Shown here piece after piece: positions 2,829-14,422 of a DNA stretch of 55,693 nucleotides (within the stretch, counting starts at the first letter, position 1; every line of letters starts with the position of its first letter). The translations under genes and the position numbers were made by a program. The notes under the pieces are model-generated. The model had not been told where the DNA came from, did no database searches, and was given only the letters and a program-made list of their open reading frames with translations. Origin of the DNA: a virus (lineage: Duplodnaviria; Caudoviricetes); the IMG/VR virus record IMGVR_UViG_3300045120_000102, positions 1 to 55,693 of that record; one strand, given 5' to 3'.

Positions 2829-3355
2829 GCGCCCCCTCCCAGTTCGGAGATGCGCGCCTTCGGTACCAGCTCGCCAACCGTGGGGATGCGCCCGAGGAAC
2901 TGTTGCGCAGCGTCTGAGTCCAGCGCGCCAATCGTCAACTCGCGCAGAAGGTTCAACTCCTGCTGGTCCAAGCGGGTGGAGGCGTCGGCGATCTGCTGCG
3001 GAACGGAGGCGATCAGTGCCTTGTGTAGTTGACTGCGGCTTGGGTCGGAGACAAGTAGGCCGTTGTATCCCACGCTCAAACTCAGGGTCGGCTCCAACTC
3101 TTGAAGTGCGCCCATGATCTGCTGGCACACCGTTTCGTAGTCCCGCTTCGCGGCGGATAGGTCACGGCGGGCCTGTTCGATGCGCTCGTCTTGCTGGCGG
3201 TATCGGCGCAGTAGCTCGGACTCGATTTCGCCGACGAGTTCGTCTTTGCGGCGCTTCACGTCATTGCGCAGGATCGCGAATTGCTTCTTGATCAGCGAAC
3301 GCAGTTCACGCCGGTCGCCGGGGGTTAGTTCACGGGCGATGTCTGCCGCGCTCAT
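2825..3355 (-). CDS. Coiled-coil hypothetical protein
   Basis: 176 aa, helical/charged; ATGA overlaps. Confidence 0.75.
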   Translation of the reverse strand: MSAADIARELTPGDRRELRSLIKKQFAILRNDVKRRKDELVGEIESELLRRYRQQDERIEQARRDLSAAKRDYETVCQQIMGALQELEPTLSLSVGYNGLLVSDPSRSQLHKALIASVPQQIADASTRLDQQELNLLRELTIGALDSDAAQQFLGRIPTVGELVPKARISELGGGA

Positions 3356-4164
3356 GCGGTCCCACCCGTCACCAGCGTCAGAGCGGACTCGGATACAACG
3401 TTGGCGTAATGCCGGGCCCACACCGAATCGAACAACGCTCGGTCGGCCTCGGTGTAGGCGTTTACCTCACGGATGGAGCCGTTGGGCAACTCCTGGTGAT
3501 GCCGCTGAGGTTCACGGTCGTGCTCGACGATGTAGCGGGCCTTCAGTCGCTTCCCGAACCCGGATGCCTTCGCCGATATCAGGGTCTGCGAGAGTCCCTT
3601 CGACTTGAGGTAGTCCCACACGTAGAGGGGGATGTCGTCGTGTGAGATTTCGGGGGCTTCGCCGAGTGCCCGGGCCAGGACGACGCGGCCCTTGGCTTCG
3701 AGGTGCCGGGGGTCGACGATGCCTTTGAGTGCTTGGAGTACGGCGGCTTGGGTTTGAGCTTGGCGGGCGAGGCGGTCGAGCTGGTCTTCGGTGGCGCGGT
3801 GGTTGATGGCGCCGCCGTCGTTGAAGTAGGCGTCGAGCGCGTCGGCGGCTTCGGCTTGGAACGCTTCGATGATGGGGCGTGCGGTGGCGGATACGCGGCT
3901 GCTGTCGATGGTGGCCAGCCACATCGTGAAGGTGCGGCGGTCGATCATCGCCATTTCGCGCGATTTGCCGTCCGTGCCAACCGTGTCCGTCATGTACACG
4001 GTTGCCCATGACCTGCTGTTCAGCTTCTGGATCTGGCGCGAGGGCTCTAGGCCGATGGCCTCGCATGAGTGCCGCAAGGACACCAACGGCTTGCCTTCAA
4101 CCAGGGTCGCTGTGATGTTCCGGTCAGTCCCGGGCACCGGGACGTGTACCAGCTCGGCGCTCAC
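3352..4164 (-). CDS. Phage antirepressor (P22 AR N-terminal-like domain)
   Basis: EGKPLVSLRHSCEAIGL...DGKSREMAMIDRRTFTMWLATI...FQAEAADALDAYF pattern; lies right after the cro-like gene. Confidence 0.8.
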   Translation of the reverse strand: MSAELVHVPVPGTDRNITATLVEGKPLVSLRHSCEAIGLEPSRQIQKLNSRSWATVYMTDTVGTDGKSREMAMIDRRTFTMWLATIDSSRVSATARPIIEAFQAEAADALDAYFNDGGAINHRATEDQLDRLARQAQTQAAVLQALKGIVDPRHLEAKGRVVLARALGEAPEISHDDIPLYVWDYLKSKGLSQTLISAKASGFGKRLKARYIVEHDREPQRHHQELPNGSIREVNAYTEADRALFDSVWARHYANVVSESALTLVTGGTA

Positions 4165-4469: not shown

Positions 4470-4820
4470 ATGAGTGTTGACATTGCCTACGTGATCCCGG
4501 TATGGACACTTGGGGACCGTCTACGGAAGATCCGGGCCGATCTTGGCCTCGGCCAAAAGGAGTTCGCGTTCTCGATCCAGGTGACGGCGAGTGCACTGGC
4601 CCAGTGGGAAACCCACCGATCTAAGCCCAGGGATCAGGTTGAGATCGCCCGACGCATCGAGAAGGCCCACCGTGTGCCAGCGGCCTGGACGCTCGGCTTG
4701 GCTACGTCCAGTGATGCCGACGGGGGTTTGCTGCTCCCTTGGATAGATTCAAACGTGCAAACGCACGGTTGCCGTGGCAAATCCTTTTGGCCTGCACGTG
4801 AGCTAGTTAACGTGGCCTGA
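4470..4820 (+). CDS. Immunity repressor (XRE HTH), 116 aa
   Basis: [22 protein letters not shown]...LAQWE HTH; stop overlaps the integrase ORF (TGATG). Confidence 0.85.
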
Positions 4821-5713
4821 TGACCACGACAATTTGTAGTAGCAAACAGTTAGCTGGTATTTGTCAGAGCATGACACAACGAACGTACAGCCTGCCCCCG
4901 GGGTGGGAGGAAGCCATCGGGCAGTGGGTCGCGTGGATGACCATCTCCGCTGCTAGCCCGGAAACCATCCGGGTCCGCAGGGGCGCGGTGCGCTACATCG
5001 CCCGACACACCCAGAGCGAATCCCCCACAGACATCACGACCAGCCAGCTCGTCGCGGTGTGCGCAGCCCGGCGATGGTCGAACGATCACCGACGCAACAT
5101 GCGGTCCCACATGGTCACGTTCTACGACTTCTGCACCCAAACAGGGATATGTGAGGCAAACCCGGCGCGTAACCTGCCCGTGGTGCCGGAATCGAAACCC
5201 CGCCCCCGCCCCGCGACCGACCAAATCTGGTCCGACCTGCTCACCGCCGCACCCCCACGCGAACAACTGATGGCACGCCTCGCCGGGGAAGCCGGACTCC
5301 GACGGGCGGAAGTCGCCCAGGTGCATCGCGACGACCTGATCCACGACCTCGGAGGGTGGTCGCTGATCGTTCACGGCAAAGGCGGCAAGCAACGCACGGT
5401 ACCAATCACCGACGGTTTGGCGGCAACGCTCCGCACTCACCGCTACGGGTATTCGCCGCGCGGCTACCTGTTCCCCGGCCGCACTGACGGTCACGTCTCC
5501 CCCGGGCATGTCGGGGTGCTGATCTCGCATCTCATGCCGGACGGCTGGTCAATGCACAGGCTCAGACATCGGTACGCGTCTCGCGGGTACGCGGGGACCG
5601 GGAACCTACGCGCGGTGCAGGAAGCCTTAGGTCATGCGAGTGTCGCCACGACAGAGCGCTACACCTTGGTCACCAGTCGTGATGTGCGGGCAGTAACAGA
5701 AGCAGCAGCGTGA
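4820..5713 (+). CDS. int: Small tyrosine integrase lacking an arm-binding domain (start 4820 or 4871)
   Basis: Catalytic GLRRAE, GKGGK, HRLRH, LGHAS, TTERY; ends EAAA. Confidence 0.92.
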   Translation: MTTTICSSKQLAGICQSMTQRTYSLPPGWEEAIGQWVAWMTISAASPETIRVRRGAVRYIARHTQSESPTDITTSQLVAVCAARRWSNDHRRNMRSHMVTFYDFCTQTGICEANPARNLPVVPESKPRPRPATDQIWSDLLTAAPPREQLMARLAGEAGLRRAEVAQVHRDDLIHDLGGWSLIVHGKGGKQRTVPITDGLAATLRTHRYGYSPRGYLFPGRTDGHVSPGHVGVLISHLMPDGWSMHRLRHRYASRGYAGTGNLRAVQEALGHASVATTERYTLVTSRDVRAVTEAAA

Positions 5714-8470: not shown

Positions 8471-8754
8471 AACCTGATCCCGAACCCGCCGAGAAAGTCC
8501 CTGACGATTGGGCTGCCGAACACCTGGGACACAATCGGGTCGATCAGTTTATCGTCAGCCGTCCCCGGGATGGCATCCGTGATCTTGTCGACGGTGCCCG
8601 AGGCAAGCTTCTCGGCAGCAGCGAGCTGCGCGACCACGGTGGCTTCCATCAGTTTCGGCATCCACTCCTTGAACAAATCGACGAGCAGATCCCGCAGTTT
8701 CGGCCACAACAGCTCGAACAGCTTCCCGACAACCACAGCCACCAGAGCATTCAT
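8467..8754 (-). CDS. Lysis-region protein (DKITDAIPG..DD..ID motif)
   Basis: Motif recalled from mycobacteriophage lysis regions. Confidence 0.7.
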   Translation of the reverse strand: MNALVAVVVGKLFELLWPKLRDLLVDLFKEWMPKLMEATVVAQLAAAEKLASGTVDKITDAIPGTADDKLIDPIVSQVFGSPIVRDFLGGFGIRL

Positions 8755-8834
8755 GCGAAAACCGCCAATGTTAGAAGGTAGAAGAAGAACACGACGAATA
8801 TCGTGATCAGCACGCGGTTTACGCGGTCAGTCAA
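8751..8834 (-). CDS. Single-TM micropeptide (27 aa)
   Basis: MTDRVNRVLITIFVVFFFYLLTLAVFA; TTGA and ATGA overlaps. Confidence 0.55.
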   Translation of the reverse strand: MTDRVNRVLITIFVVFFFYLLTLAVFA

Positions 8835-8905
8835 CCGAGCAGCACTATCAGGACGGCGACCAATACCACGCACGTCAGGAACCACAACCAGTCGTTACGG
8901 GTCAT
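8831..8905 (-). CDS. Single-TM micropeptide (24 aa)
   Basis: MTRNDWLWFLTCVVLVAVLIVLLG; ATGA overlap with lysB stop. Confidence 0.55.
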   Translation of the reverse strand: MTRNDWLWFLTCVVLVAVLIVLLG

Positions 8906-9933
8906 GCCGCGCGCAGGTAGTCGATAGCGGGGCCGATGTTGTAGTTCACATGCGGTCCCGTCTGATGAACGAAGAACAGGCCCGCATCCCACAATGCTTT
9001 GAACATTGCGGTTATCTCGATCAGCCGGGCGATCTCACTCTTCGGGTTCAGGATTTCCAGCACCTGCGCGAGGATCGAATCAGGCCCGGACAGCACGTCC
9101 ATGTTCATGATGAATTTGTAGATCGCGGTCTTGTCTTCAGCACTCTGACCGGAACAGTCCGTGTACAGGTCCGCTCTGTGGGCGTAGTCGCGCCACCACG
9201 GCGGGGTGTTCGTCAGCAATTCGTCGGCGATGCCATGCGACGTTGCTTCCGCTGTTGGTGCGCCCGGATCGGCCCACGCTTTGCCCTGTTCCCGCATCGG
9301 GTTGCCGAACGTGACCGCTTTCAGCATGTGCTGTTTAGCCCAGTGCAGGCGCCCGCCCTCCGGTTCGATGGCGTACTTCCACAACTTGCTGGTGATGACG
9401 GCGCCCTGGCTGTACCCGATCATTGAGACGCCGTGCTGCTCGATGCGGCGCCGGTGCTCAAACCCGGGTTCCATCCGTTCGAACTCGACGCACGCAGCCT
9501 CATAGCCTTCGTCAACCGACTTGCCCATAGGGAACACCGCAGCCGGATAGCCGACCCACTGCCACCGATACTTGTTCTCGACAGCGCGGGCGGTGTCCGC
9601 GTCAGGGCCAACCCATCCCGGCACACCAGTACCGCACACCGTCAACAACAAAGGCCGAACGTCCGGGCCCGGTGGGCGTTTCAGGTAGCCCATCACATAC
9701 TTCGTCTCGGCGTTAATCACACCCGGCAGATACTTCTCCTTAGGGAGGCGTCCCTGCTCCTCATACCGTGACTGCATCTCAGCGACCGCCGCCGTCATCG
9801 CGTCGTCGTAGACGGTGGTGTCAGCCAACTCGTGGGCGTAGGAGAAACGTGGACGCATCCACGCCTTGATCTTCCGAACTTCCTCGCTGTTGTCTCCGCT
9901 ACCAATTCCTACGTAGTCGTCGCCGATTCTAAT
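8902..9933 (-). CDS. lysB: Lysin B (cutinase-like mycolylarabinogalactan esterase); probable ATT start at 9933 (first ATG 9858)
   Basis: GYSQG nucleophile, AVTFGNP, DLY, HVNY; N-terminal (I)RIGDDYVGIGSGDNSEEVRKIKAWMR. Confidence 0.92.
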   Translation of the reverse strand: MRIGDDYVGIGSGDNSEEVRKIKAWMRPRFSYAHELADTTVYDDAMTAAVAEMQSRYEEQGRLPKEKYLPGVINAETKYVMGYLKRPPGPDVRPLLLTVCGTGVPGWVGPDADTARAVENKYRWQWVGYPAAVFPMGKSVDEGYEAACVEFERMEPGFEHRRRIEQHGVSMIGYSQGAVITSKLWKYAIEPEGGRLHWAKQHMLKAVTFGNPMREQGKAWADPGAPTAEATSHGIADELLTNTPPWWRDYAHRADLYTDCSGQSAEDKTAIYKFIMNMDVLSGPDSILAQVLEILNPKSEIARLIEITAMFKALWDAGLFFVHQTGPHVNYNIGPAIDYLRAA

Positions 9934-10000
9934 GATGTCCTGCTTTCCACCAGTCCGCGACTATCGCCATCTGGCTGACTTTCTTTCATCATGGGGCGGT

Positions 10001-10501
10001 TCAGCCAGCCTTCGCTGGCCGTCTGCTGTTGCGCTTACAGGGGAGACACACTCGCTGCCGCGCAGTCTGACGAGTATTAACCGCGTTGAACTCATGGCCC
10101 CACTTGCAGTGAGTGCTCCGAGCCCGCGGGTTAGTGCCATGCCTGCGCATGTCTTGCATATTCGCAAGGTGTGTGTCGTATCGAAGATTCTCGACACGGT
10201 TATCGGTTGGCTTGCCGTTGTTATGGCACACCTCAAGCCCGGGCGGGCATGGACCGATGAACACCGCCGCGACAAGCTGATGGACATAGCGGCTATTACC
10301 CTTGCCAAGGTTCACGTATTGGTGCCCTTGGCGCCGTAGGTGGCCGGGCTTCAGGGCACGGCCCCGGGCGAACCTCCGGCGTCCATCTGGAAAGATCACT
10401 ATCCGGTCAAGCGACCGGACCATGCCACGGTCGGATACCTCGTAACTACCTTCATATCCGGGGATTGGGCGCCATACTTCGGGCTCGTGGGTAACATCCA
10501 C
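10001..10501 (-). CDS. NUMOD4-HNH homing endonuclease
   Basis: EVWRPIPGYEGSYEVSDRGMVRS (NUMOD4); VHQLVA..F; CHNNG..DNRVENL. Confidence 0.9.
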   Translation of the reverse strand: MDVTHEPEVWRPIPGYEGSYEVSDRGMVRSLDRIVIFPDGRRRFARGRALKPGHLRRQGHQYVNLGKGNSRYVHQLVAAVFIGPCPPGLEVCHNNGKPTDNRVENLRYDTHLANMQDMRRHGTNPRARSTHCKWGHEFNAVNTRQTARQRVCLPCKRNSRRPAKAG

Positions 10502-10584
10502 TTCTAGCCCCCTTTCTGCTGATACCAGATGGGCGGGTCAGGGGTCGGGATGCGTTAGCGCGCACCCGGCCCCGTCTATCAATT

Positions 10585-11925
10585 CTACTGTGTCTGTCCG
10601 ACTTTCCAGTCGTGGTAATCGGTTGTGCCGCAAACCTTGTCGCGGACTTCGCCGAGCGCGTTGACGAGCGTCTGACCACCCAATTGCGGCCAGCCTTTGC
10701 CGTCAATGCCGCGGAGTTGGTCCCAGTTCTCTTGCAGCAACTGCCGGTCGGTGAGTTGCTTCGGCGGCGGCTGGCTCGGGACGTCTGGCGGCGGGACCGT
10801 CCCCTCGACGTACTTGCGTACCGCGACAGTGAACACGTCCCACGGGAAGCCATTGCCTACGTCGGTGTGGTTTCCGATCCCCAACGCTTGGGTGACGAAT
10901 TTATGGTCAGAAATTCCCGGCCCCTTCGTCGCGTAGGGCGGAATGATGACGTTAGCCGATATCGTGGGGTACTTCTTGCAGTCCTGCACCGCCAGGTAAG
11001 CCATCACGTCGATAGCGCGCCCGAACTTCGACAACCATTGCTCGCGGGTCCATCCGGCGAATGAGCCGGCGAAGCAGCCGTTGATGCTGAACACGTTGGC
11101 GTCTAGGACGGACCATGAGTAGAGGTCGGTGTCGATCACGTCTACGACGGTGACGCCGTGATCGTTCGGGTCTTCGTGCACTGTGTAGTGGTAGCTGACA
11201 GCGTTGTTGCCGGTTGTGGAACGCATCCACGCAGCCAAATCAGTGGCGTTGCTGTTCGCTTCCTGGGTGTGGATGAACCAGTTGATCGGCGGACGGCTAC
11301 GGATGCTGCCGTGCGGGTCTTCGTGGTCCCAGCCGATCTGGTCTATCTCGTTGAAGTCCGGGCGGTTATCGGGCGCTGCTGGCACGGGTGGTTGTCCTTT
11401 CGCCACTCTGTCGTACAGTTCGTTCACCGGACCCCAGTGCTTCGCGTAAGCATCAGGGACACCTGACCGCTGAACCGTTTGCGCCCACTTGTTTGCTTCG
11501 AGCGCATTGTTAGCGGCGTACGGGGAACGTTTCAGCGAGCCCATGAACAGCACGGTGGAGTCGTGTAGGTCCATGCGTTTGCGGGTGCCTTCGGGGTCGC
11601 CGTATAGGCCGCCCCATCCCCACGGGTTCGGGTCGTTCGGCCCGGAGGTCTGCTGTTGATATAGCCCTACGCTGCGTGAGTCGTTGCCGAGGCTGTCGTG
11701 CGGGAACCGGTCGGGGTCGGCATCGAAGCACGGGTCTGCGTGATTACCGGGGCACCAGAACTGCCCGCCCGCCCCCACTTCCTGGGATACGGTCATCCCG
11801 GCGATGATGCAGGCGCCACGCTTGTCAGGCATGTTCAGCTCGTCGGCGACGGCAATCATCATGGCCATGACCTGCTCGCGGGTGTGCAGCGGCTTCGGGG
11901 CAAATGCGCCTTGAATGAAGCTCAC
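10585..11925 (-). CDS. lysA: Lysin A (lysozyme-like N-domain + amidase-2 + LGGxT cell-wall-binding C-terminus)
   Basis: SVGLYQQ...AQTVQRS; FIHTQE, SYHY, NHTDVG; WPQLGGQTLV. Confidence 0.92.
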   Translation of the reverse strand: MSFIQGAFAPKPLHTREQVMAMMIAVADELNMPDKRGACIIAGMTVSQEVGAGGQFWCPGNHADPCFDADPDRFPHDSLGNDSRSVGLYQQQTSGPNDPNPWGWGGLYGDPEGTRKRMDLHDSTVLFMGSLKRSPYAANNALEANKWAQTVQRSGVPDAYAKHWGPVNELYDRVAKGQPPVPAAPDNRPDFNEIDQIGWDHEDPHGSIRSRPPINWFIHTQEANSNATDLAAWMRSTTGNNAVSYHYTVHEDPNDHGVTVVDVIDTDLYSWSVLDANVFSINGCFAGSFAGWTREQWLSKFGRAIDVMAYLAVQDCKKYPTISANVIIPPYATKGPGISDHKFVTQALGIGNHTDVGNGFPWDVFTVAVRKYVEGTVPPPDVPSQPPPKQLTDRQLLQENWDQLRGIDGKGWPQLGGQTLVNALGEVRDKVCGTTDYHDWKVGQTQ

Positions 11926-11929
11926 AGCG

Positions 11930-12088
11930 TTACCACCAGTACCGCCGACCGCCTACGGGTCCGTTGATCTGACCGACCAGCAGCAGCACTACCCCGATGA
12001 CTAGGCAGATCCAGCCCAGCGTTACAACCACGGGCGGGACAGGAACGAGGTAGCCGAGGACGACGAGCACAATTCCTAAGATGATGAT
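11930..12088 (-). CDS. 2-TM membrane protein (DUF6131-like) with apparent ATC start
   Basis: Open frame IIILGIVLVVLGYLVPVPPVVVTLGWICLVIGVVLLLVGQINGPVGGRRYWW; GAAAGAAGGG RBS upstream. Confidence 0.7.
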   Translation of the reverse strand: MIILGIVLVVLGYLVPVPPVVVTLGWICLVIGVVLLLVGQINGPVGGRRYWW

Positions 12089-12103
12089 GGTTCGGCCCTT
12101 CTT

Positions 12104-12229
12104 TCACTGGTGGTAGTCGCGGTAGTGGTGCTCTTCGAGAAGGAATGCTGACGCGGCGCCGAGGATGAATGCGGCGGAGAACGCGGCGAAGAACAGGGCG
12201 ACGATGCCGATGCCGAGTTGGATGGTCAC
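12104..12229 (-). CDS. Single-TM small protein
   Basis: GTG start, hydrophobic 41 aa. Confidence 0.5.
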   Translation of the reverse strand: MTIQLGIGIVALFFAAFSAAFILGAASAFLLEEHHYRDYHQ

Positions 12230-12395
12230 ATCAGGATCATCAGAACGGCGGATCGTTGAACGTTTCGTCTTCGGCCACCTGGACCAGGTACACCGGATCA
12301 CCGACGATGTCGGTGGTGTCGAAGTCAAGGAAGTCGTCCACGATTCACCCTTCTCGTATAGGAAGTGCCGGGTTCCTATACCTGTCGCCGAACGG

Positions 12396-12566
12396 TTATA
12401 GGTTCGGTTCCTTCACCAGTAGTTGCCAGACCTGATCGGACTGCTCGGTGTCGAACCCGTACAGTTCGTCGAATGTTCCGCAGCGTTGGCAGCACGTCAG
12501 CAGCGTCATACGTTCGTTGTCCCGCAACGCCATAGCCATCACCCAGTCATGGGAACAGGCGGTCAT
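12396..12566 (-). CDS. Small Cys-containing protein
   Basis: MTACSHDW...CCQRCG; ATGA overlap. Confidence 0.55.
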   Translation of the reverse strand: MTACSHDWVMAMALRDNERMTLLTCCQRCGTFDELYGFDTEQSDQVWQLLVKEPNL

Positions 12567-14422
12567 CCGACCCCCGCTGACACTGTTTCCCGCCTGACGC
12601 CCGAGTTGACGGTTTCGGCCCGTACTCCTGCGTTGGCGTTCTGCGCCCGGATGACGGTGGTGTTGTGGTCGGTGGCGGTAGGGATTCCTTCGCTGACCAT
12701 GCCGGCGGCGATAAGCCCGACCACAGCGAGAAGGTAGGACTGCCCGGACCATGTCAGGCTGCCGCCCGCGGTCAGCTGGACAGTGACGGTTGTGTTGCCG
12801 CCAGCGCCGGCGGCGACTACACCCGCCGCGGACAGCGCGACTGTGGCCGACATGACGGCTGTGTTGGTGGCTGTCGTCGCCCCGGCAGCGGTCAGGCCGA
12901 CGGTGACGGTAGTCGAGGCGGTACGGGTGAAGCCCAACACGCCCGAGGCGGTGAGGCCGACCGTGACCGTAGTTACTGTCGTGCTGCGCGCGACTCCGAC
13001 CGCGCCCGCAGCGTCCCGGGTCACGCTGACCGTGATGGCGGCGGAGCCTGTGGCTGCGACGACGCCGTCCGCTGAACGTCCCACCGAAACGGACGTTGGG
13101 GCCGACCCGGCGGCAGCCATAGCTCCGGCTGCGGTCAAACCTGCTGCGACGAAGGTGGCGGCTTGGCCGGTCATCACTGCGCCAGCCGTACCCGCCGCCG
13201 TCAACCCGACCGTGACTACGGTTGGTGTTGTGGAGGTGCTAGCAGCTACCGAACCTGCAGCAGTCAGACCTGCCGCAACGGTGGTTGATGCTTGCCCGGA
13301 GCCGCCCCCAGACGCGGTCAAGACTGCCGCGACCGTGGTAGAAGCTGCCCCCATCATGCCGCCGGCGCCCGCAGCGGGACGCCCAACGGTGACAGTGGTG
13401 GCGGTAGACCCAGCCGAGAACCCTACTGCGCCAGCCGCTGAGCGCCCTACGGTGGCAGTGGTGGCTGTGGTAGGTGCTGCGATGGCTACAAAGCCTGCGG
13501 CGGTCAAGCCTGCCGCGGCGGGGGTTGAGGCGGCTCCGAGCACCCCGGCGACTGTGCTTCCGGTCGCCGTCAATCCGACGGAAACGGCGGTAGTTGCGGA
13601 CCCGCTCGATGCCGCTACGGCTCCAGCGGCGGTCAGGCCGACAATGCCGGTGGTGTTGGCGGCGCCGGTGGATGTACCGGCAGCGGTCAGGCCGACGGTG
13701 ACAGTAGTTGATGCCGCGCCGGAAACGGTGACGGCCCCAGCCGCCGACGGGACAACCGCGATTGCAGTCCCTGGCGACCCGGAGATTGCAGCGACTACGC
13801 CTATAGCGGTGCGGTCGACGGTGACCGGGGTTGATGCCGACCCGGTGACTCCTGCGGTTACGGTGCCAGCCGCGGTCAATGTGACCGTAATTGCGGCGTT
13901 CGAGGACGCCGCGGATGTAGCTACCGAACCGGCCGATGTGACTGCAACAGATATGGGCGCTGACGTCGATCCGGTTACCGCTACAGTGCCGGTCGCTGAA
14001 CGGCTGGCCGTGACCGTGGTAGAAGTTGATCCGCCTGATATGCCGACAGCACCGGATACGGTCAGACCAGCCGATACAGCGGTGGGTGTCGAGCCAGCAG
14101 CTGCGGTGACCGAGCCGGCCGCTGCGAGTCCGGCTGCTGCCGCGGTTGTGGCCGTGCCTGTGGATGTGCCGCCGGCAGTGACGCCGACAGTGACGGTGGT
14201 GGGCGCCGAGCTGGTCGTAGCGGCGACAACACCCGCCGCCGGACGGCCCACCGCGATGGCGGCGGTGGTGGTGCCGGTGGATGCGTCGACAACTCCCGCA
14301 GCGGTAAGACCGACTGCTACCGCAGTGGTGGCCGTTCCGCTGTACCCGGCTACCGCTGCAGTCGCATAAACGACGCGGGGTCGCAGCGCACCAACCGGAT
14401 AGCCCCTACCGGCACGAGCCAT
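12563..14422 (-). CDS. Ala/Thr/Val/Gly-rich repetitive fibre-like structural protein
   Basis: About 25 imperfect ~20-23 aa repeats (TTVTVGLTAAG). Confidence 0.85.
   Translation of the reverse strand: MARAGRGYPVGALRPRVVYATAAVAGYSGTATTAVAVGLTAAGVVDASTGTTTAAIAVGRPAAGVVAATTSSAPTTVTVGVTAGGTSTGTATTAAAAGLAAAGSVTAAAGSTPTAVSAGLTVSGAVGISGGSTSTTVTASRSATGTVAVTGSTSAPISVAVTSAGSVATSAASSNAAITVTLTAAGTVTAGVTGSASTPVTVDRTAIGVVAAISGSPGTAIAVVPSAAGAVTVSGAASTTVTVGLTAAGTSTGAANTTGIVGLTAAGAVAASSGSATTAVSVGLTATGSTVAGVLGAASTPAAAGLTAAGFVAIAAPTTATTATVGRSAAGAVGFSAGSTATTVTVGRPAAGAGGMMGAASTTVAAVLTASGGGSGQASTTVAAGLTAAGSVAASTSTTPTVVTVGLTAAGTAGAVMTGQAATFVAAGLTAAGAMAAAGSAPTSVSVGRSADGVVAATGSAAITVSVTRDAAGAVGVARSTTVTTVTVGLTASGVLGFTRTASTTVTVGLTAAGATTATNTAVMSATVALSAAGVVAAGAGGNTTVTVQLTAGGSLTWSGQSYLLAVVGLIAAGMVSEGIPTATDHNTTVIRAQNANAGVRAETVNSGVRRETVSAGVG

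Follow-up and report, generated by a model that had tools for sequence, protein, structure and literature searches.

An ATC codon in the start position of a DUF6131 membrane-protein gene directly upstream of lysin A in a mycobacteriophage-like soil phage

The DNA analysed here (the window), a soil-metagenome assembly, is a complete IMG/VR virus record with a length of 55,693 bp. Its lysis cassette is encoded on the minus strand and comprises two small ORFs, a gene of the DUF6131 family, lysin A, a homing-endonuclease gene and lysin B (Table 1). Matches to the two lysins are confined to phages of mycolic-acid bacteria, mycobacteriophages above all; of the 1037 records matching lysin A, 947 are named Mycobacterium (best match 43% amino-acid identity, near-full length), as are 2077 of the 2085 records matching lysin B (best match 62%, near-full length). 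From these matches we infer that the host is a Mycobacterium or Mycolicibacterium. The tyrosine integrase and the antirepressor indicate that the phage is temperate; within the record the integrase gene is flanked on either side by phage genes, which would correspond to the non-integrated configuration. Megablast and tblastn searches with the region and with the 52-aa DUF6131 protein against 50,697 phage records gave no match, and exact-pattern scans of IMG/VR for the start regions of both genes discussed below, with the third base of the start codon set to N, returned 0 matches. The closest relative found by lysin A-based scans of viral and metagenome contigs has only 57% amino-acid identity.

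Table 1. Features of the lysis cassette and lifestyle genes in the window
Feature	Coordinates	Strand	Remarks
DUF6131 / PHROG 3158 ORF, 52 codons + TAA	11930..12088	-	Sequence, profile matches, hydropathy
ATC in the start-codon position of the family	12086..12088	-	Two more ATC codons after it, 12085-12080
Shine-Dalgarno-like GAAAGAAGGG	12096..12105	-	7 nt before the ATC; overlaps the upstream stop codon
7-nt spacer, GAAAGAAGGG to ATC	12095-12089	-	
Internal GTG, codon 7, first canonical start in frame	12068..12070	-	
Stop TAA of the DUF6131 ORF	11932-11930	-	
Upstream single-helix ORF, 41 codons, GTG start	12104..12229	-	TGA stop 12106-12104
First small ORF of the cassette, 33 aa, acidic, GTG start	12240..12341	-	After the inverted repeat 12356-12381
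Lysin A, Amidase_2 domain, GTG start	10585..11925	-	Start 4 nt after the DUF6131 stop
Lysin B (lysB), read from ATT 9933-9931	8902..9933	-	ATT aligned with ATG/GTG of homologues; ATC 9936-9934 directly before it
HNH/NUMOD4 homing-endonuclease gene	10001..10501	-	Between lysA and lysB
Tyrosine integrase	4820-5713	+	
Antirepressor	3352-4164	-	

The minus strand at 12563-14422 encodes a repetitive protein of 619 aa that is rich in Thr/Ala/Gly and is probably a tail fibre; the 528-codon open frame antisense to it is an artefact of the composition of these repeats. A perfect 9-bp inverted repeat, GTATAGGAA / TTCCTATAC, with an 8-nt loop, sits in the 54 nt that separate the last tail-region gene (12566-12396) from the first lysis-cassette ORF; it could serve as an operator, or as a hairpin for processing or termination. 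A scan of positions 9700-12700 for promoters and terminators gave no promoter-like site and two terminator-like sites, where 2.2 were expected.

The minus strand around the start of the DUF6131 gene reads CAG TGA AAG AAG GGC CGA ACC ATC ATC ATC TTA GGA ATT GTG, and the gene ends with TAC TGG TGG TAA. The TGA in this reading terminates the upstream 41-codon ORF, for which profile searches found no family match; it lies in the DUF6131 frame, 15 nt (five sense codons) ahead of the ATC. There is no ATG, GTG or TTG between this TGA and codon 7, and the ORF listing gives only the 46-aa form that begins at the internal GTG. The full frame encodes 52 residues ending in VGGRRYWW. Its hydropathy profile shows a 39-residue hydrophobic run, in which PVPP splits two helices at residues 1–15 and 20–39, and a basic tail, GGRRYWW. 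The earlier note, made from the sequence alone, had described an intact 52-codon frame with two transmembrane helices and this C-terminus, beginning ATC-ATC-ATC-TTA-GGA 7 nt after GAAAGAAGGG and with an in-frame stop just upstream; every detail of this description was confirmed.

Residues 2–52 of the protein match positions 2–58 of the 59-position Pfam profile DUF6131 (PF19626) with an E-value of 8e-6 and 26.5 bits (cut-off 25), and positions 2–51 of the 51-position PHROG 3158 profile with an E-value of 7e-10. In both cases the match starts with the second codon, aligned with profile position 2, which puts the first ATC in position 1 of the family, that of the initiator. Members of the family begin with M/V-I-[IV]-L-G, in accordance with the MIILG start that the earlier note gave for DUF6131-like proteins. 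The IIILGI of the window fits the consensus MI[IV]LGI, and G5 is invariant in an alignment of 37 sequences (A2). The window protein shares with the Pfam and PHROG families the length (about 50–59 aa), the two-helix hairpin, the N-terminal I[IV]LG and the C-terminal GGRRYW; the feature that it lacks is the canonical start codon in position 1. A phage homologue (L002) with 60% identity and the same length of 52 codons has ATG ATT GTA CTA GGT in this place. DUF6131 genes are mostly chromosomal, in Mycobacterium and other actinomycetes, whereas the window copy is part of a phage lysis cassette and has no canonical start. A literature search found no paper mentioning DUF6131, and the sole match in a word-indexed protein search was the window's own 46-aa form (P0001).

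A HMMER (phmmer) search of 1.84 billion representative proteins yielded 177 proteins at E ≤ 1e-3. Many annotated homologues carry long N-terminal extensions and have V or L in the homologous position; these are evidently GTG and TTG starts that gene callers have over-extended across unrelated sequence. The codon aligned with the ATC was read at 101 homologous loci, where it is ATG in 64 cases, GTG in 34, TTG in two and aberrant in one; ATC, ATT or ATA was found at 0 of the 101. The 80 genome loci, located with patterns that did not include the start, account for 50 ATG, 27 GTG, two TTG and the aberrant codon; the 21 viral loci have ATG (14) or GTG (7) and are biased towards these codons, one of the three search patterns having demanded M or V at position 1. 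At eight loci the start position was extrapolated gap-free from a partial match, and loci were found with alignment A3, alignment A2 being too diverse. The surveyed relatives are at most 65% identical to the window protein, and it is against such homologues that the ATC is unique and that the change appears recent. In one Actinomycetota genome copy (L029:2480-2520), the first three codons, including the start, seem to have been lost in comparison with the near-identical copies L025 and L026.

The initiation region of the gene is well preserved. The predicted duplex with the anti-Shine-Dalgarno sequence has an energy of -9.2 kcal/mol for the ATC, compared with a genome median of -8.05 kcal/mol (n = 68), and 41% of the 68 window genes have a Shine-Dalgarno (SD) sequence at least as strong. 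Folding of the 101 nt that surround the ATC is less stable than that of shuffled sequences (z = +1.53; 191 of 200 shuffles at least as stable), and such an open fold fits the expectation for a start site. The SD sequence and GTG of lysA fall within a predicted stem, the 5′ arm of which is formed by the last DUF6131 codons. As a coupling hairpin this structure was rejected, since it is no better than shuffles (z = -0.62; 45 of 200 at least as stable), and the same applies to the start region of lysB.

The presumed host can use ATC as a start codon. In all five mycobacterial genomes inspected (L164–L168), the infC gene has a conserved GGAGG-CCCC-ATC-AGC-ACT before the N-domain of IF3, and in two of them an in-frame stop lies 9 or 14 codons upstream with no ATG, GTG or TTG in between. 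These two loci leave no canonical option, which means that the start is ATC (ATA in one case). In E. coli, IF3 is autoregulated through the start codon of infC. The infC genes (AUU in E. coli, ATC in mycobacteria) resemble the phage gene in having an ATH codon right behind an SD sequence, from which low, IF3-sensitive expression would be expected; they differ from it in that the ATH is conserved across species and has, in E. coli, an autoregulatory role, whereas the phage ATC has a counterpart at 0 of 101 loci. According to a study of E. coli, AUC, AUU, AUA and CUG initiate at 1–2% of the level of AUG, with an N-terminal Met, and the AUU of pcnB is one of two confirmed non-canonical starts in this bacterium (10.1101/063800). 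In pcnB the weak start limits a potentially harmful protein; this is a cellular enzyme with an experimentally confirmed start, and for the phage protein any harm at high dosage would be hypothetical. The absence of an upstream canonical start and the SD spacing, which are typical of infC and pcnB, were found in the phage as well; recurrence of ATH codons among relatives was not (0/101 and 0/28 for the two phage genes). A study using M. smegmatis reporters describes residual expression from start-codon mutants (PMC9094748).

The second gene of the cassette with such a start is lysB. A local tblastn survey gave 41 loci, of which 13, aligned only at later residues, were dropped; all of the 28 aligned from residue 1, several of them near-duplicates of one phage, have ATG (22) or GTG (6) where the window has ATT 9933-9931. 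The homologous starts read GTG AGG ATC GGG in Nebkiss and ATG AGG ATC GGT in MooMoo, compared with ATC ATT AGA ATC GGC in the window. The duplex energy of the ATT is -9.3 kcal/mol; the first canonical codon in frame is ATG 9858 (SD -7.6 kcal/mol), the counterpart of residue 26 in the homologues. Identity to Nebkiss is about 75% across the first 24 aligned residues of lysB and 64% overall, so relaxed constraint is not apparent. The claim that two genes of one lysis cassette have lost a canonical start while staying intact was thus borne out for the DUF6131 ATC and the lysB ATT.

The lysA and lysB genes overlap in Nebkiss and MooMoo, while in the window the HNH gene separates them. The HNH element is also present in another soil run (X2), about 98–99% identical over 9940-10133, 10121-10362 and 10580-10730. 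The X2 contig departs from the window exactly at 9940, into different DNA. This junction precedes the ATC of lysB by 4 nt and the ATT by 7 nt, and the ATC/ATT lies 4–9 nt from it; in the X2 DNA beyond 9940, read by eye, an ATG follows 4 nt after the same SD sequence. Judging from these alignments, 9940-10560 is a mobile homing-endonuclease cassette, the 3′ end of which supplies the SD sequence now serving lysB. The ATG-to-ATT change in lysB may have arisen as a by-product of the insertion, or it may represent a polymorphism that confers immunity to cleavage. The position of the lysB start next to a mobile-element junction weakens the case for a common selective cause of the two ATH changes.

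Several small ORFs were noted around lysB. A 27-codon ORF on the minus strand (9910-9992), whose ATG (9992) comes 8 nt downstream of the HNH stop, spans the lysB ATC/ATT in a different frame and terminates 20 nt beyond it; this ORF might be coupled to lysB initiation or interfere with it. A frameshift from this ORF into lysB was considered and rejected, as inspection by eye showed no slippery heptamer. Two tiny hydrophobic ORFs follow lysB on the same strand, at 8831-8905 (24 codons), overlapping the lysB stop (ATGA), and at 8751-8813 (20 codons), reaching into the start of the following gene (PHROG 2653); each could encode a mini membrane peptide or be a chance ORF. In a viral contig (L103:2465-3479), about 350 nt separate a DUF6131 gene from a downstream HNH endonuclease with 46% identity to that of the window.

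Only two genes without a canonical start in the expected place, the DUF6131 gene and lysB, were found among the roughly 90 inspected by gene packing (84 ORFs listed in the minus-strand packing pass plus the small genes resolved). This pass flagged 21 5′ gaps, including those of the two genes. Seven further gaps were inspected, each of which turned out to hold one or more small canonical-start genes in another frame; the remaining gaps were put down by judgement to genes on the plus strand, the frameshift region of the tail chaperones, the pair of mini-ORFs that follow lysB and, for the HNH gene, a good SD sequence. The large structural ORFs are all intact, and no further signs of decay were seen beyond the two start lesions. 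The start-codon survey proposed in the earlier note thus found the ATC unique to this record (0/101, with 0/28 for lysB), while the other signs of decay, which that note had paired with uniqueness as evidence against a regulatory role, were not found in the genome. Pure drift is unlikely to have produced a second ATH start 2.1 kb away in the same cassette by coincidence, which hints at selection or at a cause common to both.

Evidence that the DUF6131 gene takes part in lysis is weak. The protein has traits of holins and antiholins, being small and two-helical with an RR-containing tail, and its stop lies 4 nt before the start of lysin A. The gene is absent from all 58 loci found through lysin A. 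Neighbours were scanned at 7 of the 21 viral loci: portal/MuF genes precede the DUF6131 gene in three contigs (four loci), and the neighbours at the other three had no family. Bacterial copies are flanked by unrelated chromosomal genes, among them those for LigD, a TetR regulator, a response regulator, cutinase, RPE65 and an Na/H exchanger. The X2 contig matches the window from the 5′ end of lysA to position 11976 and then diverges, extending a further 255 nt; 30 nt of the diverged part, read by eye in the frame of the window, code for a stretch resembling helix 2. In another run (X3), several contigs are 80–95% identical to the window over 11998-12062. A relative with a diverged DUF6131 gene before lysA therefore probably exists. 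Lysis is timed at translation initiation of a small membrane protein in phage lambda, with its dual-start holin S105/S107, and in MS2, through coupling of the L gene. These systems use canonical AUG codons or termination–reinitiation and have been shown experimentally, whereas a holin or antiholin role of the DUF6131 protein is putative. A literature search found nothing on bacteriophage lysis with an AUU start codon. The lysis-timing function proposed earlier was left unsupported by this survey of neighbours, DUF6131 genes being absent from other lysis cassettes (0 of 58 lysin A loci) and found after portal/MuF genes; nor is the mechanism an undescribed one, as non-canonical ATH starts are already known.

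The reading that explains these observations best, to which we give about an even chance, is that a lineage-specific substitution left an accessory membrane-protein gene with a weakly working AUC start. The two-helix DUF6131 gene would be an accessory gene of a temperate mycobacteriophage-like soil phage, placed directly upstream of lysin A; its absence from the 58 lysin A loci fits this status. An ancestral ATG or GTG would have been replaced by ATC in one lineage, with the rest of the initiation region retained: the SD sequence at 7 nt, the lack of structure and the upstream stop 15 nt away. Since the SD sequence, its spacing and the unstructured region are all kept, initiation at the AUC most likely persists. 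Ribosomes would most likely start there with fMet, at a small fraction of the rate of ATG (about 1–2%, by analogy with the E. coli reporters), and the outcome would be a low-dose (hypomorphic) full-length protein. The change is probably a substitution in a dispensable gene rather than a conserved regulatory design.

The foremost alternative, which we regard as unlikely, is that the ATG-to-ATC change effectively silenced a dispensable gene, that full-length lysB was lost likewise, and that only the youth of the lesions has kept the ORFs intact. Mycobacteriophages D29 and Giles can form plaques without LysB, and a 52-codon ORF may stay open for a long time by chance; the uniqueness of the changes among 101 and 28 loci and the absence of DUF6131 from the 58 lysin A-related loci point in the same direction. 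Silencing is opposed by both ribosome-binding sites, which are intact and of average strength, by the well-conserved N-terminus of lysB and by the lack of damage in other genes. It is opposed also by the use of ATC in mycobacterial infC and by the measurable initiation from ATH codons behind a good SD sequence in E. coli (10.1101/063800).

Somewhat less probable again is that the weak starts are selected, the AUC of the membrane gene and the AUU of lysB being maintained so that the proteins are scarce, or rise when host IF3 becomes limiting late in infection, thus tuning lysis and perhaps also throttling lysin A. The concentration of the only two genes without a canonical start in one cassette, both behind good SD sequences, speaks for such selection, as do the infC of the host genus, which starts at ATC, the classic IF3-autoregulated type of start, and the predicted fold that places the SD sequence and GTG of lysA in a stem with the end of the DUF6131 ORF. 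That hairpin is, however, no more stable than shuffles, neither codon was found in relatives, DUF6131 genes elsewhere stand after portal/MuF genes or amid unrelated chromosomal genes, and the HNH element junction offers a separate explanation for the lysB change. The specific form of this proposal, a translational lysis timer that reads host IF3, with the AUC- and AUU-started proteins minimal early and rising when IF3 is limiting late, and with coupling that could affect lysin A 4 nt behind, seems improbable.

Translation from the internal GTG 12070-12068, which would give a 46-aa protein, has a marginally smaller chance. It is the first canonical start in frame and the choice of the gene caller, and the only database copy (P0001) has this form; an AGGA lies 3 nt upstream. 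This SD sequence is weak, and its spacing is too short (-4.2 kcal/mol; an equal or stronger one is present in 87% of the 68 window genes), and initiation here would remove the conserved MI[IV]LG and shrink helix 1 from 15 to 9 residues.

It is very unlikely that the ATC is a sequencing or assembly error, or a minority allele in the consensus, and that the true phage has ATG. The record is metagenome-assembled from one source sample, which gives this concern some substance. A Logan contig of the probable source run (X1; 2657 nt, depth 12.3), built by an independent assembler, has 0 differences from the window over 11866-12400; as it comes from the same sample as the record it is not independent evidence for the allele, and it excludes an assembler artefact while leaving room for a sample-specific allele. 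An ancestral ATG would form CATG in both genes and, in the DUF6131 gene, GATC as well. Neither motif is depleted genome-wide (CATG 218 observed against 235 expected, GATC 319 against 355), on which ground restriction-site avoidance and methylation-linked base-calling error were rejected; two separate errors, both hitting start codons, would be improbable.

Least credible of all is read-through of the TGA 12106-12104 into a three-helix fusion of about 99 aa that would need no start codon of its own: the two ORFs do share a frame and are separated by just this TGA and five sense codons, but we know of no read-through signal at this site, no homologue with such a fusion was found (extended entries are gene-caller extensions over unrelated sequence), and the SD sequence is placed exactly for a separate start.

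On the reading preferred here, that of a weakly working AUC start, the DUF6131 membrane protein is probably made in small amounts. Gene callers truncate both genes, reducing the membrane protein to its 46-aa form; they would start lysB at residue 26, with the loss of 25 residues of its N-terminal domain. The pair of near-cognate starts lies in one lysis cassette of a phage whose presumed host genus has an ATC-started infC, and this pairing permits a cheap and direct test of whether phages exploit IF3-sensitive initiation. If the two changes are merely young substitutions, they show how start-codon lesions first arise in dispensable phage genes and how the insertion of a homing endonuclease can damage the start of its neighbour.
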